Shown piece after piece: positions 36,571 through 45,781 of a DNA stretch of 45,781 nucleotides. Within the stretch, counting starts at the first letter, position 1. The number at the start of each line of letters is the position of its first letter. The notes under the pieces were generated by a model. It searched no databases, was not told where the DNA came from, and was given only the letters and a program-made list of their open reading frames with translations. Origin of the DNA: Candidatus Limnocylindrales bacterium (GTDB lineage: Bacteria; Chloroflexota; Limnocylindria; Limnocylindrales; CSP1-4). A program made the translations under genes and the position numbers. The stretch spans positions 1-45,781 of the forward strand of contig DATFPL010000140.1 of the NCBI GenBank assembly GCA_035264845.1, read 5' to 3'.

Positions 36571-37124
36571 GCGGCCGCCAGATCATGACGGCGGACGAGA
36601 TCCGCCGGGCGACGGTGCGGCTGTCCCACGAGATCGTCGAGAAGCAGGCCGGGACGGAGGGTCTTGCGCTCGTCGGGATCCAGCGACGCGGCGTGCCGCT
36701 CGCCCACCGGATCGCGGCCGCGATCGCCGAACACGAGCGAACGGACGTGCCGGTCGGTGCCCTCGACATCACGTTCTACCGCGACGACCTCTCGCTCGTC
36801 GCCCAGCAGCCCGTCGTCAAGGGGACCGACCTCGCGTTCGACCTGAATGGCCTCACGGTCGTGCTCGTCGACGATGTCCTGTACACGGGGCGCACGATCA
36901 GGGCGGCGATGGATGCCCTCGTCGACTTCGGTCGCCCCCAGGCGATCCGTCTCGCGGTCCTCGTCGACCGCGGCCATCGCGAGCTGCCGATCCGCGCCGA
37001 CCATGTCGGCAAGAACGTCCCGACATCGCGCGAGGAGATCGTCCATGTCCACCTCGCCGAAGTCGACGGCGAGGACGGCGTCGACATCGACCGGATCTCG
37101 GCGGCCGTCGGGGCCGCGGGGTGA
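36567..37124 (+). CDS. pyrR: bifunctional pyr operon regulator / uracil phosphoribosyltransferase
   Basis: [35 protein letters not shown] (PRPP motif), [13 protein letters not shown]. Confidence 0.92.
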
Positions 37125-38164
37125 CGGTCGTTCGCGACGTCGTGGCCGATCCCCCGATCCCCGCCGTTCCCTCCGTCGACGACGCGCCGGAGACGCAGAA
37201 GATCGGCTGGCCGCACCGTCATCTGCTCGACCTCGACGTCGTCACGTGGCCGGAGATCGAGCTCGTGATGCGGACGGCCGACGCGATGCGCGAGGTGCTG
37301 GCGCGCCCCATCCCGAAGGTCCCGGCGCTGCGCGGCCGGAGCGTGACGATCCTCTTCTACGAGGCATCGACGCGGACGCGGGTGAGCTTCGAGGTCGCCG
37401 CGAAGAACCTGTCGGCCGACGTCGTGAACATCGCCGTCTCCAGCTCGTCGGTGGCGAAAGGCGAGTCGCTCGTCGACTCCGTTCGGACAGTCGAGGCGCT
37501 TGGCGCGGACGTCCTCGTCATCCGCCACTCGGTGTCCGGCGCGCCCGCACTCGCCGCGGAGACATTCGGTGGCTCCGTCGTGAATGCCGGAGACGGCTGG
37601 CACGCGCATCCGACGCAGGCGCTCCTTGATCTCTACACGATGCGGCAGCGGCTCCCCGGGGGTTCCGTCGCCGGGCGGAAGGTCGCGATCCTCGGCGACG
37701 TCCTCCACTCGCGGGTGGCGCGGTCGAACCTCTGGTCGCTGACGGCGGCGGGCGCCGACGTCTGGCTGTGCGGGCCGGCGACGCTGCTACGCGGGTTCGA
37801 GCGGTGGGCATCCGTCGGAGCGGCGGGGCGGCGGTTCCACGTGACGTCGTCCGTCGACGAGGCGGTTCGCGACGCGGACGTCGTGATGGCACTCCGGATC
37901 CAGCGGGAGCGGATGGCGTCGGGGCTGCTTCCGTCGCTGCGCGAGTACGCGGCCCGGTTCGGGCTCACGGCCGAGCGGTTGTCGCTCGCCCGCCCGGACG
38001 CGATCGTGCTGCATCCCGGGCCGATGAACGAGGGCGTCGAGATCTCACCGGACGTCGCGGTCGGCGCCCATTCGGTCATCACCGATCAGGTCGCGAACGG
38101 CGTCGCGATCCGGATGGCGCTGCTCTACCTGATGGCGTCCGCCGGCGCTCGCCGCGCCGGATGA
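37121..38164 (+). CDS. pyrB: aspartate carbamoyltransferase catalytic subunit
   Basis: [33 protein letters not shown]. The GTG overlaps the pyrR stop. ~35-aa N-terminal extension. Confidence 0.92.
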
Positions 38165-39561
38165 CCCTGGCCGAATCGGCGGTCGGACGCGTCGCCGACC
38201 TCGACATGTCGCGGGCGTGGCTCGTCGATCCGGCGACCGGCCGCGAGGGCGCGGCCGACATCGTCGTTCGCGACGGCGTCGTCGAAGCGGTCACGTGGCT
38301 CGATGGTGAGGACGCCAACGGCGTCGACGAGCGTGGCATCGTCGTCGCGCCCGGGTTCATCGACCTCCACGCCCATTTTCGGGAGCCCGGGTTCGAGGAT
38401 GCGGAGACGATCTCGAGCGGCAGCGCGGCCGCGGCCCACGGCGGGTTCACGACGGTCGCCGTCATGCCGAACACCGAACCCGCGATCGACGACGCGTCGG
38501 TCCTCGGGCGCGTCCACGCGCTCGCCGCGACGTCCGGCTCGCCGGTGCGCGTGGTTGCCTATGGGGCGGTCACCGCACGGAGGCGTGGGGAGCAGCTGGC
38601 CGCTATCGGCGAGCTGGCCGACGCAGGCGTCGTGGGGTTTTCGGACGACGGGTCACCCGTCCGCTCGGCGGCGATCATGCGCAACGCGCTCGCGTACGCC
38701 GGGATGGTCGGCCTGCCGGTCGTCGACCACGCCGAGGATCTCACGCTGACCGAGGGGTCCGAGGCAAACGACGGGCTCGTCGCGACGGTGCTGGGACTCC
38801 GCGGCTGGCCCGCGGCCGCAGAGGAAGCGGCGGTTGGGCGAGACCTCGCGATCCTCGCCGACGTCGTCCGCGACGTGCCCGGAGCGCGGCTCCACCTGAC
38901 GCATCTGTCGACGGCCGGCTCGCTGGAGCTCGTGCGCCGCGCGAAAGCGGCCGGGCTCCCCGTGACGTGCGACGTGACTCCCCATCACCTCGCGCTCTCC
39001 GACGAGTGGATCGCCGGCGCGCGACGCTGGGCCTGGGAGTCAGACGGGGACCCATGGCGGCACGACGTCAAAGTGGCGCCGCAGTACTCGACCGCACTCC
39101 GCGTCAACCCGCCGCTCCGATCGAGCGACGACGCGGCCGCGTGCCTCGCCGCAGTCGTCGACGGGACCGCCGACGCGATCGCGACCGATCATGCGCCGCA
39201 TACCGCCGTCGACAAGGACGTCGAGTTCGGCTTCGCGGCCAACGGCATCAGTGGCATCGAGACGGCGCTCGGGCTCGTGCTCGCGGCGGTTGGCGCCGGG
39301 AGGCTGCCGTTGCGCCGCGCGATCGAGGCGCTCACCGTGGGACCCGCGCGCGTCCTGGGGCGGCTCGGCGGCGAGCCCGCGATCCGCGTCGGGGCGCCCG
39401 CCGATCTCGTCGTCTTCGATCGGTCGCAATCCTGGCGGGTGACTCGCGATGGGCTGCTGTCGCGGGGCAAGAACTCGCCATTGCTGGGCCGCGAGCTGAG
39501 CGGCATCGTTCTCCTCACGGTCGCCGGCGGCCGCGTCGCGTACGAAGCGTCGCAGCGGTAA
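38161..39561 (+). CDS. pyrC: dihydroorotase
   Basis: PGFIDLHAHFREPG, TDHAPH. The ATG overlaps the pyrB stop (ATGA). This is the C-terminal part of listed ORF 37768..39561. Confidence 0.9.
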   Translation: MTLAESAVGRVADLDMSRAWLVDPATGREGAADIVVRDGVVEAVTWLDGEDANGVDERGIVVAPGFIDLHAHFREPGFEDAETISSGSAAAAHGGFTTVAVMPNTEPAIDDASVLGRVHALAATSGSPVRVVAYGAVTARRRGEQLAAIGELADAGVVGFSDDGSPVRSAAIMRNALAYAGMVGLPVVDHAEDLTLTEGSEANDGLVATVLGLRGWPAAAEEAAVGRDLAILADVVRDVPGARLHLTHLSTAGSLELVRRAKAAGLPVTCDVTPHHLALSDEWIAGARRWAWESDGDPWRHDVKVAPQYSTALRVNPPLRSSDDAAACLAAVVDGTADAIATDHAPHTAVDKDVEFGFAANGISGIETALGLVLAAVGAGRLPLRRAIEALTVGPARVLGRLGGEPAIRVGAPADLVVFDRSQSWRVTRDGLLSRGKNSPLLGRELSGIVLLTVAGGRVAYEASQR

Positions 39562-39589
39562 CAAGCCGTTCGGGCGCGACTGCGTCGGA

Positions 39590-39595
39590 TACGCT
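39590..39595 (+). promoter_or_regulatory. -10-like TACGCT 6 nt before ATG 39602 (leaderless-type start)
   Basis: TACGCT-cgaccg-ATG, 29 nt after the pyrC stop. Confidence 0.4.
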
Positions 39596-39601
39596 CGACC
39601 G

Positions 39602-40915
39602 ATGCCGGGACGCGCGATGAACAGCGATTACGAGCGATCGTCGTACTGGCGCGCGACGATGCCGGCGCTGCCCGACCGGAGCGGACGCCCGCTTCCGGAC
39701 CGCGCCGACGTCGTCGTCATCGGTGGCGGGTACACCGGCGTCGCGGCCGCGCGACGGCTGGCCGAGAACGGCGCGTCAGTCACGTTGCTCGAGGCAGACG
39801 AGCTCGGGTCCGGGGCGTCCACCCGAAACGGCGGGATCGTCCATCCAGGCTACAAGTACGGGCCGCGGACGCTCGCCAAGCGGTACGGCCACGACCTGGG
39901 ACGCGCGCTGTTCGCCGAGACGCTCGACGCGTACCGGTTCGTCCGCGACACGATCGCGGCGGAGCGGATCGACTGCGACTTCCGCGAGTGCGGCTACGTC
40001 GAGCTCGCCTACGCGCCGTCCCACGTCGACGACCTCCGCGACGCGCACGAAGGGCTCGCGTGGGCCGGCGTCGAGTCGACGATCGTCTCGCGCGACGAGC
40101 TCGGCGCCGAGGTCGGGACAACGGCGTACCACGGCGCGCTCGTCGTCCCGGTCGGCGCGACGGTGCATCCCGCGAAGTGGTTCGCCGGCCTCGCCTCCCT
40201 CGCCACCGCCGCGGGCGTGGACCTCCACGAGGGCGTGCGCGCGAGGCGCGTCCGCCGAGAGGAAAAGCGGTTCATCGTCGACACCGAGCGCGGGTCGGTC
40301 GAGGCCGGAGACGTCCTCGTCGCGACGAACGGCTACACGGACGGCGTCGTTCCTGCGCTCCGCCGCCGCGTCATTCCGGTCAAGAGCTACATCATCGCCA
40401 CGGAGCCGCTGCCGCGCGATGTGGTCGCGGAGCTGTCGCCGCGCCGGCGGGCGTTCTTCGACACGAAGAACTTCCTCTACTACTGGCACGTGACGGCGGA
40501 CGGCCGGATGGTCTTCGGCGGGCGGGCAAGCATGATGCCGACGACGCTCGACCAGACTGCCGCGATCCTCCACCGCGGACTCCTCGCGGTCCACCCGCAG
40601 CTCGCCGGCCATCGGATCGAGTACGCGTGGGGCGGCAACGTCGGGTTCACGTTCGATCGGATGCCGCACGTCGGGCGGATCGACGGCGTGACGTACGCGA
40701 TGGGCTACTGCGGGACTGGCGTCGCGATGTCCGCGTACCTCGGAACGCGGGTCGCGGACTGGATTGGTGGCGCCGAACCGCCCGCGCTCCAGCGCCTTCG
40801 GTTCCCGATCGTTCCCGCGCCGTACGAGGGGCGGCCGTGGTTCCTCCCCGTGGTCGGCGAGTACTACCGATTGCGGGACCGGCTGGCCGCCCGATCGCGC
40901 CCGAAAGACGGCTAG
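39602..40915 (+). CDS. FAD-dependent oxidoreductase (DAO family)
   Basis: DVVVIGGGYTGVAAARRLAENGASVTLLE (Rossmann GxGxxG) and ASTRNGG. Confidence 0.8.
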   Translation: MPGRAMNSDYERSSYWRATMPALPDRSGRPLPDRADVVVIGGGYTGVAAARRLAENGASVTLLEADELGSGASTRNGGIVHPGYKYGPRTLAKRYGHDLGRALFAETLDAYRFVRDTIAAERIDCDFRECGYVELAYAPSHVDDLRDAHEGLAWAGVESTIVSRDELGAEVGTTAYHGALVVPVGATVHPAKWFAGLASLATAAGVDLHEGVRARRVRREEKRFIVDTERGSVEAGDVLVATNGYTDGVVPALRRRVIPVKSYIIATEPLPRDVVAELSPRRRAFFDTKNFLYYWHVTADGRMVFGGRASMMPTTLDQTAAILHRGLLAVHPQLAGHRIEYAWGGNVGFTFDRMPHVGRIDGVTYAMGYCGTGVAMSAYLGTRVADWIGGAEPPALQRLRFPIVPAPYEGRPWFLPVVGEYYRLRDRLAARSRPKDG

Positions 40916-42501
40916 CGCGCGGCGAGGTCGCGAAGCGTGGCGAGGAGTCGATCGACGTCAGCCTCGGTCGACATGTAGTTGAGGATCCCGGCGCGCAGCC
41001 ACGTCGCGCCCCGGAGCCGCGTCGTCGACAGCCACCCTTCGCCGGAACGCTCCAGGGCCTCCTGGAGGCGATCCTGGTGCTCGTCGAGCGCGGCCGTGTT
41101 GCCGCGCAGCACCGCGGGGACGTGGCGGAAGCAGACGACCGACAGCTCCGGCTCCGCCGGGATCGCCTCGAAGTCGTCGCTCTTCGCGCATTGCCGCGCG
41201 AGGTACGCGGCAAGGTCGTCGTTCATCTCGACCAGGCGGCCCAGGCCGTCCGTCCCGAGATGGCGCCACGACAGCCACAGCTTCAGCGCGCGCCAGCGGC
41301 GCGTCCCCTCGAAGCCGAGCTTGTAGAAGTTGAGCTGCCCGGGCTCCGCGTCGTGACCGTCCGGGTCCGCGAATCCCTCCGCCGAAACGGGACTGCCGCC
41401 GCGGTAGTACTCGGGGCTTCGGTCGAACGTGGCGGCGAGCTCGTCGCCGCGCTTCACGACGAGCGCTCCGATGTCGTACGACTGGAAGAACCACTTGTGG
41501 GGATCGACCGTCACCGAGTCGGCGCGGTCGAGCGCCGGAACGCGCCACGCGTCGCGCTTCGACAGCCGCGCCGCGCCGCCGTACGCCGCGTCGACGTGGA
41601 GCCACAGACCCTCGCGCGCTGCCACGTCCGCGAGCTCTTCGACGAGGTCGACCGATCCTGTGTTGGTCGAGCCCGCGACGGCGGCGATCGCGACCGGTCG
41701 GAGTCCCGCCGCGCGGTCGCGCGCGATCGCCTCCGCGACCGGCGCGCCATGGAGCCTGAACCGGTCATCCGCGGCCACGACGACGAGCGTCTCGGGCGGG
41801 AAGCCCAGCTCGTCGAGCGCCCGCGCGATCGAGAAGTGCGTCTGGTCGGACGCATAGACACGGACGCCGTCGAGCGCGGCGCCGCGCGGCGGTCGCGACG
41901 CCCGGAGGAGCCGCCGCAGATGCACGTCGCGGACGAGCGCCATCGCGATGAAGTTCGCCATCACGCCACCGGACGTGAGCAGCCCGAAGCTGCCGCCGTC
42001 GTAGCCGACGACGTCGCACAGCCACCGCACGACCTCCTCCTCGACGAACGCGGCGACGGGTCCCGCGTGCCAGACGTCGACGCCCTGGTGGGCGACCTGC
42101 GCCAGCAGCTCGCCGAGGATCGACATGACGAGCGGTGGCGGCGTGAAGTAGGTGAACGCCCGGGGGTGCCAGGCGTTGAGCTGGTGAGGCGCGATCCGCG
42201 TCCGGAACTCCTCGAGGAGGTCGGACGAGGCGGTCGGTCGCGCCGGCGCGGCCGCGGGGCGGCCCGTCGGGCCGAAGAACTCGCGACGGAGCTCCGCATA
42301 TCCCGCGGGCGCGCCCGTCGCGCGCCGCAGCGCCTCGTCGTAGAGGTAGTCGAGCGCCGTGGACCACGCGGCTCGGCCCGCGGCATCGAGCGCTTCGCGC
42401 CCGCCCGGCGCGGCGACGTCGATGAGCTCCGGTTCGGGGTGCCAGTCGAAGCGGTTGCGCTCGGCCTTCGGCGCGTCCGCCATCAGGTCGTCGGTTGCCA
42501 T
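40912..42501 (-). CDS. group II pyridoxal-phosphate-dependent decarboxylase
   Basis: LLTSGGVMANFIAM, HVDAAYGG, and SVTVDPHKWFFQ (PLP-Lys). ATG 42501 was chosen because TACCAT lies 7 nt upstream on the minus strand. The listed ORF extends to TTG 42603. Confidence 0.8.
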   Translation of the reverse strand: MATDDLMADAPKAERNRFDWHPEPELIDVAAPGGREALDAAGRAAWSTALDYLYDEALRRATGAPAGYAELRREFFGPTGRPAAAPARPTASSDLLEEFRTRIAPHQLNAWHPRAFTYFTPPPLVMSILGELLAQVAHQGVDVWHAGPVAAFVEEEVVRWLCDVVGYDGGSFGLLTSGGVMANFIAMALVRDVHLRRLLRASRPPRGAALDGVRVYASDQTHFSIARALDELGFPPETLVVVAADDRFRLHGAPVAEAIARDRAAGLRPVAIAAVAGSTNTGSVDLVEELADVAAREGLWLHVDAAYGGAARLSKRDAWRVPALDRADSVTVDPHKWFFQSYDIGALVVKRGDELAATFDRSPEYYRGGSPVSAEGFADPDGHDAEPGQLNFYKLGFEGTRRWRALKLWLSWRHLGTDGLGRLVEMNDDLAAYLARQCAKSDDFEAIPAEPELSVVCFRHVPAVLRGNTAALDEHQDRLQEALERSGEGWLSTTRLRGATWLRAGILNYMSTEADVDRLLATLRDLAAR

Positions 42502-42508
42502 CGCCGCG

Positions 42509-42514
42509 ATGGTA
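42509..42514 (-). promoter_or_regulatory. -10-like TACCAT (minus strand) 7 nt before ATG 42501
   Basis: On the minus strand: TACCAT-cgcggcg-ATG. Confidence 0.4.
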
Positions 42515-42547
42515 CGGGCGCCGGGGGCGTTCCCGCCGGTGAGCCCG

Positions 42548-42553
42548 TACAGT
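42548..42553 (+). promoter_or_regulatory. -10-like TACAGT 6 nt before GTG 42560
   Basis: TACAGT-tcggcc-GTG, divergent from the decarboxylase promoter. Confidence 0.4.
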
Positions 42554-42559
42554 TCGGCC

Positions 42560-42955
42560 GTGACCGACCGGGCTCCCGCCACGCCGCCGACGCGGGACGT
42601 CAACTACAAGGGCGAACCGCTCGACAGCGAACGAGGGCCGGGACTGGGGTGCTTCCGGTTCCAGCTCGCAGTGCTGGCGGTCCTCGTCGTCCTGACGCCG
42701 CTCAGCGTCGCGTGGGGCTGGCCGATCTGGGTGAGCACCGCGCTCCTCGTCGCGGTCATCGTGCTGCTGCTGTTCGCGGGCCAGACGATCATCTTCCTGC
42801 TCCGCCTCGTCGCCGCGGACAGGCGTGCCGCGGGCCGGCGGAGGCCGCTCGCGGGTCGAACGCCGACGGTGGGCGAGCTCGAGGACACCGGGCACGAACT
42901 GCAGCGGGACAGCCCGGCGGATGCGCCGTCCGACGAAGGGCCCGTGCGACAATAG
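42560..42955 (+). CDS. small membrane protein (2 TM helices, charged C-terminal tail), 131 aa
   Basis: FQLAVLAVLVVLTPLSVAWGWPIWVSTALLVAVIVLLLFAGQTIIFLLRLV. In 42604-42670 GC1/GC2/GC3 are about 73/50/78% in this frame. The start could also be GTG 42671. Confidence 0.5.
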   Translation: MTDRAPATPPTRDVNYKGEPLDSERGPGLGCFRFQLAVLAVLVVLTPLSVAWGWPIWVSTALLVAVIVLLLFAGQTIIFLLRLVAADRRAAGRRRPLAGRTPTVGELEDTGHELQRDSPADAPSDEGPVRQ

Positions 42956-43006: not shown

Positions 43007-43333
43007 GTGCCCGTGCTCGCGACCTACTTCTCCGTCCGACGCGGCCGCGATCCCTTCTTCAAGTTCTTCATGAAGACGATCTTTCCCCGCCAGGTCCGCG
43101 AATACGAGCAGAAGTTCGGGATCCGCTTCATCGGCTGGTATAACGTCGCGCACGGGTGGGACTTCGACAACGTCATCCTGCTCGACCTGCCCGATTACGC
43201 GACACTGGACAAGCTCGAAGCCGACGAGGCGACTCGCGCCCTGGGGCACCGCGCCGGCGAATGGATCTTCGAGCGCCACCACTCGATGTTCCTCCGCGAG
43301 CGGATGGGCCCCGACCTCGAATACCACCGCTGA
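43007..43333 (+). CDS. small cytoplasmic protein, GYD-domain-like (tentative)
   Basis: FGIRFIGWYNVAHGWDFDNVILLDLPDYATL resembles the GYD motif region (..FYYAFGEYDVVLIADLPD..) as I recall it. GAGGA lies 10 nt upstream of the GTG. Confidence 0.5.
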   Translation: MPVLATYFSVRRGRDPFFKFFMKTIFPRQVREYEQKFGIRFIGWYNVAHGWDFDNVILLDLPDYATLDKLEADEATRALGHRAGEWIFERHHSMFLRERMGPDLEYHR

Positions 43334-43392
43334 CCCGCGGCGAACGGACACCGCAACGACGACGAGCGCGACCACCGAACGGAGGCGACGCG

Positions 43393-44340
43393 ATGGACAC
43401 CGGCCGCAACGACCAGCTCGGCGAGCTCGCGGCCGACGCCGCCCTCGAGCGAAGCGACTTCCTCGTGCAGGCGACCGAACAGCTGCGCCGCTTCCTCGAT
43501 GCGAACCGCGACCGCGTCGCGGAGCTCGGCGGCCTGACGCTCATCGACGAGGATCCCGACTACCTGTCGATCGCGCCGGACCTCACGTTCCGCAGCCGGA
43601 CGCGCGAATTCGACAACACGACGGGACAGTGGACGAGCGAGACGGAGGTCATCGAAAGCGCCGCGGAGCTCGTCGAGCTGTACAACCCCGCGGACATCTA
43701 CGCCGCGTTCGCGGAGGCCGCTCGCGAGGCTGCGGGACTGCAACCCGAGCCGACCGCCACGGACGACCTCATGGACACGGCGATGGTCGCGCCCGAAGAG
43801 AGCTTTCCCGTCGGCGACGACCCGTACGCCGCCGCAGCGGACGAGTGGGCCGCGGGACGTCCTACGGCGGTCGAGGCGGACGACGATGAATCCGCCGCGC
43901 GCGGGCTGTATGACCTCGCGCTCGAGTACCAGGAGCGGAGCCAGCGGAGCGAGGCGCAACTGCTCGACCAGTTCGAGGCGGCGTCCGCTAACCTCACGTC
44001 GCGCCTCGGCGATCTCATCGTCGTCGACGACGACGATGAGCGGCTGACACTCACGGCGAGCGGTGGGTTCCGCGCCGAGGTCATTCCCGAGGAAGCCGAA
44101 GGCGAGTGGCGGACGCTCGAGACGCCCGAGGAGCTCGTCGAGTTCTACGACCCGACGGACGTCTTCGGCGACCTCGCCGACGCGCTCGCCGAGGCGTGGC
44201 CGTCGATCGCCGCCGACGGTGCCGTTGCCGGCGGCGCTGCCGTCGAGGGCGCCGCCGATGCCGAAGCGGATGACGACGATGACGACGACGCGGACGACGA
44301 GCCGTCGCGGAACGGCAGCGGGAGACCGGCCCCCGAGTGA
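43393..44340 (+). CDS. highly acidic, internally duplicated protein of unknown function, poly-Asp C-terminus
   Basis: GGAGG precedes the ATG. Two homologous halves: LTLIDEDPDYLSIAP..GQWTSETEVIESAAELVELYNPADIYAAFAEAA and LIVVDDDDERLTLTA..GEWRTLETPEELVEFYDPTDVFGDLADALAEA. The tail is ADAEADDDDDDDADDE. Confidence 0.7.
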   Translation: MDTGRNDQLGELAADAALERSDFLVQATEQLRRFLDANRDRVAELGGLTLIDEDPDYLSIAPDLTFRSRTREFDNTTGQWTSETEVIESAAELVELYNPADIYAAFAEAAREAAGLQPEPTATDDLMDTAMVAPEESFPVGDDPYAAAADEWAAGRPTAVEADDDESAARGLYDLALEYQERSQRSEAQLLDQFEAASANLTSRLGDLIVVDDDDERLTLTASGGFRAEVIPEEAEGEWRTLETPEELVEFYDPTDVFGDLADALAEAWPSIAADGAVAGGAAVEGAADAEADDDDDDDADDEPSRNGSGRPAPE

Positions 44341-45203
44341 CGATGCGCCTCGTCGCGGCGGAGCTCGTCGACAGCCGGGAGATCCTCCCGGGTCAGTGGA
44401 TCCAGTCGTTCCACGCGCCGCACCTCGCGACGGGATCGCGGGCCGGGCAGTTCGTCCACGTCCGGACCGGCGACTACTCGGGCCTGGTCCTGCGGCGCCC
44501 GTTCTCGATCAACACGGCCGACGCAGGCTCCGGGATCGTCACGATCCACTTCCGCACCATCGGCCGCGGGACCGAATGGTTTACCCGCCTCCGGCCCGGC
44601 GACGCGATCGACATGCTCGGGCCGCTCGGACGGCCGTTCGAGGTCGATCCGCGGTCGCGGCATCTGCTGCTCGTGGCCGGCGGGCTCGGCATGGCCGGCG
44701 TCCGGATGCTTGCCGACGAGGCGATTCGCGACGGCCGCGCGGTGACGTTGCTGTTCGGCGCGGCGAGCGCGCGCGAGGTCTACCCGTCGAACCTGCTGCC
44801 GGACGAGGTCGAATACGTCGTCGCGACCGACGATGGCTCGCTGGGGCACCGCGGCTACGTCACGGAGCTCGTCCCGGAGTACGAGGCGTGGGCAGACCAG
44901 GCGTTCGCGTGCGGGCCGCAGCCGATGCTCGCCGCGCTGGCGCGGCTTGCCGCGGGCCGGCAGGGACGGATGGGCGTGGCGAAGCTGGGTCGCAAGCGCG
45001 GCGGCGGGCGACAGGAGAAGCCGGGCTCGCCCGCGGCGCGACGGAAGGCGTTCCTGCAGGTATCGATGGAGCAGAACATGGGCTGCGCGGTCGGGGCGTG
45101 CCTCGGGTGCGTCGTCATGGGCGCTTCCGGCACGCCGCAGCGAGTGTGTCGCGAGGGACCCGTCTTCGCGGCCGAGGAGATTGCCTGGGAGGCAGGCTGG
45201 TGA
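44337..45203 (+). CDS. pyrK: dihydroorotate dehydrogenase (class 1B) electron-transfer subunit
   Basis: RRPFSI (FAD binding), LLLVAGGLGMAG, and the C-terminal 2Fe-2S motif MGCAVGACLGCVV...RVCREGPVF. The GTG overlaps the upstream stop; ATG 44343 is the alternative. It carries a ~25-aa basic insertion (GRQGRMGVAKLGRKRGGGRQEKPGSPAARRKA). Confidence 0.85.
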   Translation: MTMRLVAAELVDSREILPGQWIQSFHAPHLATGSRAGQFVHVRTGDYSGLVLRRPFSINTADAGSGIVTIHFRTIGRGTEWFTRLRPGDAIDMLGPLGRPFEVDPRSRHLLLVAGGLGMAGVRMLADEAIRDGRAVTLLFGAASAREVYPSNLLPDEVEYVVATDDGSLGHRGYVTELVPEYEAWADQAFACGPQPMLAALARLAAGRQGRMGVAKLGRKRGGGRQEKPGSPAARRKAFLQVSMEQNMGCAVGACLGCVVMGASGTPQRVCREGPVFAAEEIAWEAGW

Positions 45204-45781
45204 AGTCGAAGAAGCGGGTCGTCACGACGCGGGACGGCCGCCGAACGCCGACGGTTCGGCACGTCAGGTCCACGATTGCCGCGGCCCGGCGACCTTCGCC
45301 AATACCGGTGGCGGCGCCTGTCCGAGCGCGGTCGGCGCCGCCCGCCCCTGCCGTCGAACCGACTCGTGCCGAGGACGTCGATCTCTCCGTCGATCTGGGG
45401 CGCGGGCTCGTACTCGACAACCCGATCCTCGTCGCGTCCGGCACGTTCGGGTACGGCGTCGAGTACGGCGAAGTCGTCGACGTCCAGCGGCTCGGCGCCA
45501 TCTGCTGCAAGGGCACGACGCTCAAGTCGCGGATCGGCAACGTGACGCCGCGGGTGACCGAGACGCCGGCCGGGATGCTCAACTCGATCGGGCTCCAGAA
45601 CCCGGGCGTCGACGCGGTCATCGAGAAGTACGCGCCGGCGTGGCAGACATGGCGGACGCCCGTCGTCGTCAACGTCGCCGGCGAATCGGTCGGCGACTAC
45701 GTCGAGGTCGTGCGGCGGCTCGAGGGCGTGCCGGGTGTGTCGGCGATCGAGCTCAACATCTCGTGCCCCAACGTCGGCCGG
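45200..45781 (+). CDS. pyrD: dihydroorotate dehydrogenase class 1B catalytic subunit, 3' end outside the window
   Basis: Not in the ORF track because there is no stop in the window. My translation gives ...LDNPILVASGTFGYG...CKGTTLKSRIGN..PRVTETPAGMLNSIGLQNPG...VNVAGES...IELNISCPNVG. The GTG overlaps the pyrK stop. The ~60-aa basic N-terminal extension makes the true start uncertain. Confidence 0.85.
   Translation, partial: MKSKKRVVTTRDGRRTPTVRHVRSTIAAARRPSPIPVAAPVRARSAPPAPAVEPTRAEDVDLSVDLGRGLVLDNPILVASGTFGYGVEYGEVVDVQRLGAICCKGTTLKSRIGNVTPRVTETPAGMLNSIGLQNPGVDAVIEKYAPAWQTWRTPVVVNVAGESVGDYVEVVRRLEGVPGVSAIELNISCPNVGR

Follow-up and report, generated by a model that had tools for sequence, protein, structure and literature searches.

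A strongly acidic two-repeat protein family in the pyrimidine operon of the Chloroflexota class Limnocylindria

The class 1B dihydroorotate dehydrogenase (DHODH-B) is a PyrK/PyrD heterotetramer that is represented by the solved enzyme of Lactococcus lactis (1EP1, 5KSW) and by the pyr operon of Bacillus. To our knowledge, no third subunit of this enzyme has been described, and our literature search for one found none. Non-catalytic partners of pyrimidine enzymes do exist, namely PyrI, the regulatory chain of aspartate transcarbamoylase, and PyrC', the inactive dihydroorotase of Pseudomonas. Highly acidic proteins such as Ocr and ArdA are DNA/RNA-mimic and anti-restriction proteins. Here we analyzed a 45,781-nucleotide stretch of DNA (the window; contig DATFPL010000140.1, assembly GCA_035264845.1) from a Candidatus Limnocylindrales bacterium of the family CSP1-4, in which a gene for a strongly acidic two-repeat protein preceded pyrK and pyrD. 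Similar to the described DHODH-B loci, the pyrK and pyrD genes downstream were true ones, and the acidic gene was coupled to them as genes of enzyme subunits often are. The family founded by this gene was outside every known family and fold that we searched, appeared from genome searches to be restricted to the class Limnocylindria, and was a fixed component of the pyr operon in all three sampled families of the class.

The gene and its parts were as follows (AF2, AlphaFold2; pLDDT, predicted local distance difference test).
43393..44340 (+): gene of the acidic two-repeat protein (315 aa, net charge -61), with which an apparently Limnocylindria-restricted orphan family is founded
43381..43385 (+): Shine-Dalgarno sequence GGAGG, 7 nt 5' of the ATG of the acidic gene, read directly in the sequence
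43393..43746 (+): repeat 1 (residues 1-118), in which a long helix precedes four beta strands and a pair of short helices, with the conserved AAGLxxEPTA at its end
43747..43872 (+): linker between the repeats (residues 119-160), pLDDT 70-79, carrying DPYAAAADxWAA as an almost invariant motif
43873..44208 (+): repeat 2 (residues 161-272), a homologue of repeat 1 with the same AF2 topology
44209..44337 (+): disordered, Asp/Glu-rich C-terminal tail (residues 273-315), pLDDT <50 for residues 280-295
44337..44340 (+): GTGA overlap of the TGA of the acidic gene (44338-44340) with the GTG of pyrK, read in the sequence

This open reading frame (ORF) was a genuine gene. It was real and under selection because it had a ribosome-binding site, more than 4000 homologues with conserved motifs, and a presence, at one copy each, in 40 of 41 close relatives. 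The homologues were recovered by word-indexed search at 55-94% identity; all of them were named hypothetical and came from 'Candidatus Limnocylindrales/Limnocylindria' or Chloroflexota metagenome-assembled genomes. In four loci (L045, L057, L080 and L092) the acidic ORF lacked the usual stop and ran for 365-609 aa into the pyrK region in another frame, which probably reflected assembly frameshifts or a lost stop codon.

The sequence-only reading of the window had described the 315-aa product as very rich in Asp and Glu, and this was the case: the two residues made up 25.7% of the protein, its net charge was -61 and its pI was about 4.05. The G+C content of the window was about 71%. The acidity was spread across both folded repeats, so that the tail was not its sole carrier (repeat 1 -15, linker -9, repeat 2 -24, tail -13). 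The C-terminus quoted in that reading was slightly wrong since the protein ran past ...DDDDDDDADDE into PSRNGSGRPAPE. Among relatives, the tail varied in sequence and length (VEDVED..., DDDQ..., GEGEGD...), and it was short or absent in some loci. The linker residues Y145, A148, A149, D150, W152 and A153 were each at least 90% conserved.

The acidic protein was a tandem duplication of a domain of about 115 residues. The internal duplication that had been read from the letters was recovered by BLASTP of one half against the other (E 3e-9) and by hhalign of repeat 1 against repeat 2 (97.7% probability, E 2.2e-12, 79 columns), and the AF2 model showed the same topology twice. Namely, each repeat was predicted to start with a helix of some 40 residues, which is followed by four beta strands and then by two short helices. 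This model, which had an 80-sequence alignment as input, reached a mean pLDDT of 84.8, with most of each repeat above 90 (about 88-96 for repeat 1), lower values in the linker and a disordered tail.

No known relative of this domain was found. Scans of the acidic protein against Pfam, NCBIfam and PHROGs gave no family above the cut-offs, the best Pfam match (E 0.03) being far short of them, and the orthologues from the sister order (f3) and from the Limnocylindraceae (f2) had no match to a curated family in these three collections either. Moreover, PDB sequences were not matched in a single-sequence (phmmer) or a profile (hmmsearch) search. Thus, the earlier claim that the product belonged to no recognized family, and was an undescribed one, was borne out by these databases. 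The full-length model was also searched with Foldseek against the PDB and against the viral models of BFVD, and nothing was found at E <=0.001 in the PDB (best E 0.034, TM 0.12) or in BFVD (best E 0.006, TM 0.16). Weak matches to PUR/Whirly and polo-box proteins were dismissed since their TM was below 0.25. A profile hidden Markov model of the family, searched against 1.84 billion cluster representatives, retrieved only 397 clusters; among the 150 of them that were listed, most were shorter fragments with partial profile alignment and none had another architecture, so distant relatives with known domains were not seen among the matches listed, which were the same family and its fragments only. 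A literature search for such an acidic protein in a pyr operon found nothing. This was thus an orphan family and, judging from the predicted model, one with an apparently new fold relative to the PDB and the viral models.

The distribution of the family was equally narrow. Among 301 Chloroflexota genomes there were 31 solid matches, all of them inside the class Limnocylindria, and only two matches outside it, both with E >0.002. Family names here follow PMC13212565, and locus L108 was from a CSP1-4 genome. The share of Limnocylindria (CSP1-4 and relatives) in communities of soil and sediment can rise to as much as 18-30% (PMC13212565).

Three forms of the protein were found in the class. The CSP1-4 form, that of the window's own family, had two repeats and the tail, with a median net charge of -61. 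The form of the sister order had two repeats but no poly-acidic tail, and a net charge of about -40. In Candidatus Limnocylindrus (the Limnocylindraceae), whose genomes were about 1.1 Mb, the protein had only 152 aa and a net charge of -8, and repeat 1 was the only part retained: the hhalign E was 7.5e-11 for repeat 1 and 0.04 for repeat 2. Since the outgroup order had two repeats, the single-repeat form was most simply a reduction in a streamlined freshwater lineage.

The genomic context of the acidic gene was that of pyrimidine biosynthesis, and three neighbouring features of the window were needed to describe it.
36576..39546 (+): pyrR-pyrB-pyrC, the upstream half of the same ancestral pyr operon, located by tblastn against the window's own genome
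42560..42955 (+): small protein with two transmembrane segments (2-TM protein), with the conserved YKGxxLDxxRGPGLGCF and a basic juxtamembrane RRxxRRRPL...TVGELED
43007..43333 (+): orphan protein of 108 aa, encoded by the most conserved gene of the cluster; AF2 fold ferredoxin-like (beta-alpha-beta-beta-alpha-beta)

In the window, pyrR occupied 36576-37115, and pyrB and pyrC followed up to 39546. The order 2-TM protein, 108-aa protein, acidic protein, pyrK and pyrD was nearly universal in CSP1-4 (about 100 loci). In Limnocylindrus the order was pyrR, 2-TM, 108-aa, acidic, pyrK, pyrD and then a phosphoribosyltransferase gene, and in the sister order it was pyrR, pyrB, pyrC, 2-TM, 108-aa, acidic and pyrE, with no pyrK-pyrD at that position. 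Thus, in CSP1-4, the Limnocylindraceae and the sister order alike, the acidic gene followed pyrC (or the 108-aa gene) and preceded pyrK or pyrE. Given this conservation of pyr gene order across three families, the acidic gene was an old, fixed resident of the pyr operon of the class, and we infer the ancestral order pyrR-pyrB-pyrC-[2-TM]-[108-aa]-[acidic]-(pyrK-pyrD)-pyrE.

The acidic gene was usually translationally coupled to whichever gene came next. The overlap of its stop with the pyrK GTG, which had already been noted from the letters, was present in the window, and an NTGA overlap of the two genes recurred in 46 of 68 CSP1-4 loci. In the sister-order locus L131, the stop of the acidic gene overlapped the start of pyrE instead (ATGA), so that the coupling followed position and not a particular partner. 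The spacing and the overlaps suggested that the acidic gene was cotranscribed with pyrK-pyrD; as for expression data, no RNA-seq or metatranscriptome runs holding the window sequence were found, only DNA metagenomes.

The interval between pyrC and the trio of 2-TM, 108-aa and acidic genes contained extra genes in CSP1-4, and the operon was contiguous in Limnocylindrus and the sister order. In the window, these extra genes lay at 39562-42603 and included a minus-strand gene of a pyridoxal phosphate (PLP)-dependent decarboxylase (PF00282, E 3e-58). Because of this insert, the trio-pyrK-pyrD unit of the window probably had its own promoter.

The two neighbours in the trio were less constant than the acidic gene. 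The 2-TM protein was conserved in all three families, in which the N-terminal YKGxxLDxxRGPGLGCF was invariant and a basic stretch (RRxGRRRPL...TVGELED) led into an acidic/Pro tail that varied, and its gene was missing from whole genomes (87-95% complete) of three CSP1-4 genera that retained the acidic gene. The 108-aa protein was restricted to Limnocylindria, with an identity of 80-97% within CSP1-4 and of 54-59% to the sister order; its AF2 model (pLDDT 75) had a weak Foldseek likeness to NIPSNAP/EthD dimeric alpha+beta barrels (E >=0.1). Four whole genomes of the genus to which the window belongs lacked the 108-aa gene but retained the acidic gene. Thus, the acidic gene was the constant member of the trio and neither neighbour was obligatory. 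An obligate complex of the three proteins was ruled out since each neighbour was absent from genomes that kept the acidic gene. A small membrane-protein gene also follows pyrC in actinobacterial pyr operons (e.g., Rv1382).

The reading that we favour, tentatively and at somewhat less than an even chance, was that the acidic protein was a binding protein without enzymatic activity, specific to this lineage and co-expressed with the pyrimidine genes. It was likely to be non-enzymatic because it had no cofactor or catalytic motif and the pathway had no gap: pyrB, pyrC, pyrD, pyrE and pyrF were all present. For the same reason, the trio as a substitute for a missing pyr enzyme was ruled out, pyrF and all the other steps being accounted for. 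According to this proposal, the acidic protein would be expressed together with the pyrimidine enzymes, under the control of PyrR where the operon was contiguous (the Limnocylindraceae and the sister order), and its acidic repeats and conserved linker motif (DPYAAAADxWAA) would bind partner proteins in an adaptor or regulator role.

Several points weighed against this proposal. Any binding partner was hypothetical, and operon membership alone did not prove a role related to pyrimidines. The control by PyrR was uncertain in CSP1-4, where the divergent PLP-decarboxylase gene stood between pyrC and the trio. Moreover, repeat 2, the tail and most of the charge had disappeared from the Limnocylindrus version; therefore, extreme acidity was not essential to any core role.

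The strongest competitor of this binding-protein reading was a role unrelated to pyrimidines, in which a general polyanionic protein (for instance one that mimics nucleic acid, acts as a holdase on basic proteins or buffers cations) would simply ride in a constitutively needed operon. The extreme net charge on folded domains, the variable low-complexity Asp/Glu tail and a predicted fold that was not enzyme-like all agreed with such a role, as did the complete pathway, the dispensability of both trio neighbours and the PLP-decarboxylase gene, an unrelated gene that had entered the CSP1-4 pyr cluster. However, the position between pyrC and pyrK or pyrE was kept in three families and two orders despite rearrangements, which would be unusual for a hitch-hiker, and the gene was single-copy in each genome and always at the pyr locus. 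Foldseek also found no likeness to known DNA mimics in the PDB and BFVD. On balance, we considered this role somewhat less likely than the binding-protein reading.

The next alternative was the hypothesis of the sequence-only reading itself, namely that the acidic protein was dedicated to DHODH-B, as its electrostatic chaperone, scaffold or inhibitor, and would bind a basic insertion of PyrK and a basic N-terminal extension of PyrD. These segments and their genes were located in the window as follows.
44337..45203 (+): pyrK, electron-transfer subunit of DHODH-B (PF10418, PF00970, NF000799; PDB matches 5ksw_B and 1ep1_B)
44946..45053 (+): basic PyrK insertion (residues 204-239, net +10), located after the NAD domain and before the 2Fe-2S domain, from comparison with Lactococcus PyrK
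45200..45781 (+): 5' portion of pyrD, truncated at the window end, for the class 1 catalytic subunit with its SCPN motif; PF01180 and NF005574 match from residue 61
45200..45373 (+): basic PyrD N-terminal extension (about 58 aa, net +8) from the GTG overlapping the pyrK stop, with the conserved motif KxKKRVVT...RTPTVR

Both basic segments were real. The segment that joins the NAD domain to the Fe-S domain of PyrK had 36 residues here versus 7 in Lactococcus PyrK (5ksw/1ep1), so that the Arg/Lys/Gly-rich insertion before the 2Fe-2S cluster, as it had been read from the letters, held up, and in CSP1-4 it formed a conserved motif (RLGVAKLGRKRGxGR..GSPAARRKAFLQ, also written RLGVAKLGRKRGxGR..GSPAARRKAFLQVSMEQNMGC). 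The insertion was strongly conserved across CSP1-4 (RLGVAKLGRKRG...GSPAARRKAFLQ), being neither a compositional spacer nor random low-complexity sequence, and it sat in the linker into the 2Fe-2S domain, at the PyrK-PyrD interface. Limnocylindrus PyrK had a shorter and less basic version, and none of the 8 PyrK-type genes that were recovered outside the class, in other Chloroflexota genomes, had the insertion.

The basic PyrD extension from the coupled GTG at 45200 was supported as well, by a motif conserved at the protein level at that start. The motif (M/V)KAKRRVVTS...RTPTVRRIK was found in 49 of 67 loci by a regular expression that missed some variants, and in 27 of those 49 loci the start of the PyrD with the motif overlapped the pyrK stop; the PyrD N-terminus of Limnocylindrus was MPPRKRAKVAAPR. 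An artefact of choosing the longest ORF was ruled out by this conservation and by the start at the pyrK stop. All four Fe-S cysteines of PyrK and the SCPN catalytic motif of PyrD were present.

In seven loci (L055, L062, L070, L074, L092, L102 and L107), pyrD started about 660-680 nt past the pyrK stop with no overlap, and this fixed distance pointed to an inserted gene or cassette of fixed size. We also observed that an R-T-P-T-V string was common to the PyrD extension (GRRTPTVRH, 45245-45262) and to the cytoplasmic tail of the 2-TM protein (AGRTPTVGE, 42866-42880), and relatives retained (K/R/P)TVG in the latter and RTPTVRR in the former. It may be a shared short linear motif, or chance in sequence rich in Arg, Pro and Thr.

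Several observations spoke for a dedicated partnership. In 40 of 40 Limnocylindrales genomes the acidic gene directly preceded pyrK on the same strand, and it often overlapped pyrK (the 46 of 68 loci above), the charges were complementary (-61 versus +10 and +8), the PyrD extension carried a conserved basic motif, and the PyrK insertion was found only in the two families where the acidic gene lay directly upstream of pyrK. However, this last co-occurrence was one evolutionary event and had no statistical weight. The PyrK insertion was always accompanied by the acidic gene, as co-distribution would have it, but the reverse did not hold: the sister order kept a strongly acidic two-repeat protein without PyrK. 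Namely, no PyrK-like match was found in 3 of the 5 sister-order genomes tested, and the other 2 had only NfnB-type homologues with no pyrD after them. Every DHO_dh gene found in nine sister-order genomes tested was outside the pyr operon, and the one that was classified encoded a quinone-dependent class 2 enzyme (NF003652, 361 bits versus a cut-off of 267). Therefore, the type of DHODH differed between orders within a single class. This class 2 gene was located at L147:1480-2484 (-), with equivalent places in L141-L146, and was flanked by aminotransferase-like and aldehyde-dehydrogenase-like genes.

Other comparisons also disagreed with a dedicated partnership. In Limnocylindrus, the basic PyrK and PyrD segments were retained beside a single-repeat protein of net charge only -8. 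Conversely, 18 CSP1-4 loci had the full acidic protein and no recognizable PyrD motif, as far as the regular expression, which misses some variants, could tell. No co-variation of charge was seen between the acidic tail and the PyrD extension (Spearman rho 0.07, p 0.55), although this was a weak test as the 67 loci were phylogenetically related. Thus, of the electrostatic hypothesis, the undescribed family, the coupling to pyrK and the lineage-specific basic segments stood, but the dedicated partnership was not supported. The acidic protein was probably not a dedicated DHODH-B partner, and we found the hypothesis in its original form improbable. Because the protein persisted without PyrK and alongside a quinone-type DHODH, its role was probably tied to the operon rather than to DHODH-B.

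The favoured reading of an operon-linked binding protein can nevertheless accommodate these segments. In the branch of CSP1-4 and Limnocylindraceae, the basic PyrK insertion, with the peptide RLGVAKLGRKRGGGR as part of its candidate docking segment, and the PyrD N-terminal extension may have become secondary docking elements for the acidic protein; such docking as a derived add-on was a possibility to which we gave a low probability. Still more speculative was a non-catalytic adaptor in which each repeat or the linker would dock a short basic motif and so hold DHODH-B, and perhaps other pyr enzymes, in a membrane-tethered complex found only in Limnocylindria. As candidate motifs, PyrK would offer RLGVAKLGRKRG, the N-terminus of PyrD would offer KAKRRVVT...RTPTVRR, and the 2-TM protein would offer RRGRRRPL...TVGELED close to the membrane. 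We regarded this arrangement as distinctly improbable. Finally, an anti-PyrR factor, whose acidic surface would mimic RNA and titrate the PyrR attenuation protein in a feedback loop, had in its favour a polyanionic protein and a pyrR gene heading the operon in all three families, but it was very improbable. The PyrR of this locus had no overall basic character (pI 5.5), many bacteria without the acidic family have PyrR, and divergent genes separated the acidic gene from pyrR in CSP1-4.

Limnocylindria are an uncultured class of soil and freshwater without a cultured member, and a core biosynthetic operon of theirs carried a family without a detectable relative in 1.84 billion clusters, the PDB and a viral structure set. 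In two families, the acidic gene adjoined a DHODH-B with conserved basic motifs seen nowhere else among the sampled Chloroflexota. If the acidic protein does bind pyr enzymes, a textbook pathway would gain an accessory subunit of a new kind; otherwise, the protein would still offer a new fold, predicted with confidence, and its gene a clean marker of the class. This is a modest claim, since lineage-restricted orphan families are common.

Among known systems, the PUR/Whirly repeats (PURA 8chu, MRP1/2 2gia) resembled the acidic protein in having tandem repeats with a four-stranded antiparallel sheet followed by helices, and they gave weak Foldseek matches. However, these matches were not significant (E 0.3-2, TM 0.10-0.23), PUR repeats lacked the 40-residue helix with which each repeat of the acidic protein started, and the acidic surface was the opposite of that of a nucleic-acid binder. 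Mimics of the Ocr/ArdA type shared with the acidic protein a strong net negative charge on folded domains, but Foldseek (PDB and viral models) gave no significant match and PHROGs gave none, and the context of the acidic gene was biosynthetic, neither mobile nor defensive. In comparison to the locus described here, the solved class 1B enzyme had neither the 29-residue basic PyrK insertion nor the PyrD N-terminal extension of about 58 residues, and the acidic protein, unlike a subunit of that enzyme, also occurred in genomes without PyrK. The comparison with PyrI and PyrC' was one of analogy only: the acidic protein had no sequence or fold similarity to them and no zinc or nucleotide-binding motif, and the likeness lay in being a non-enzymatic protein of a pyr cluster that could bind pyr enzymes.

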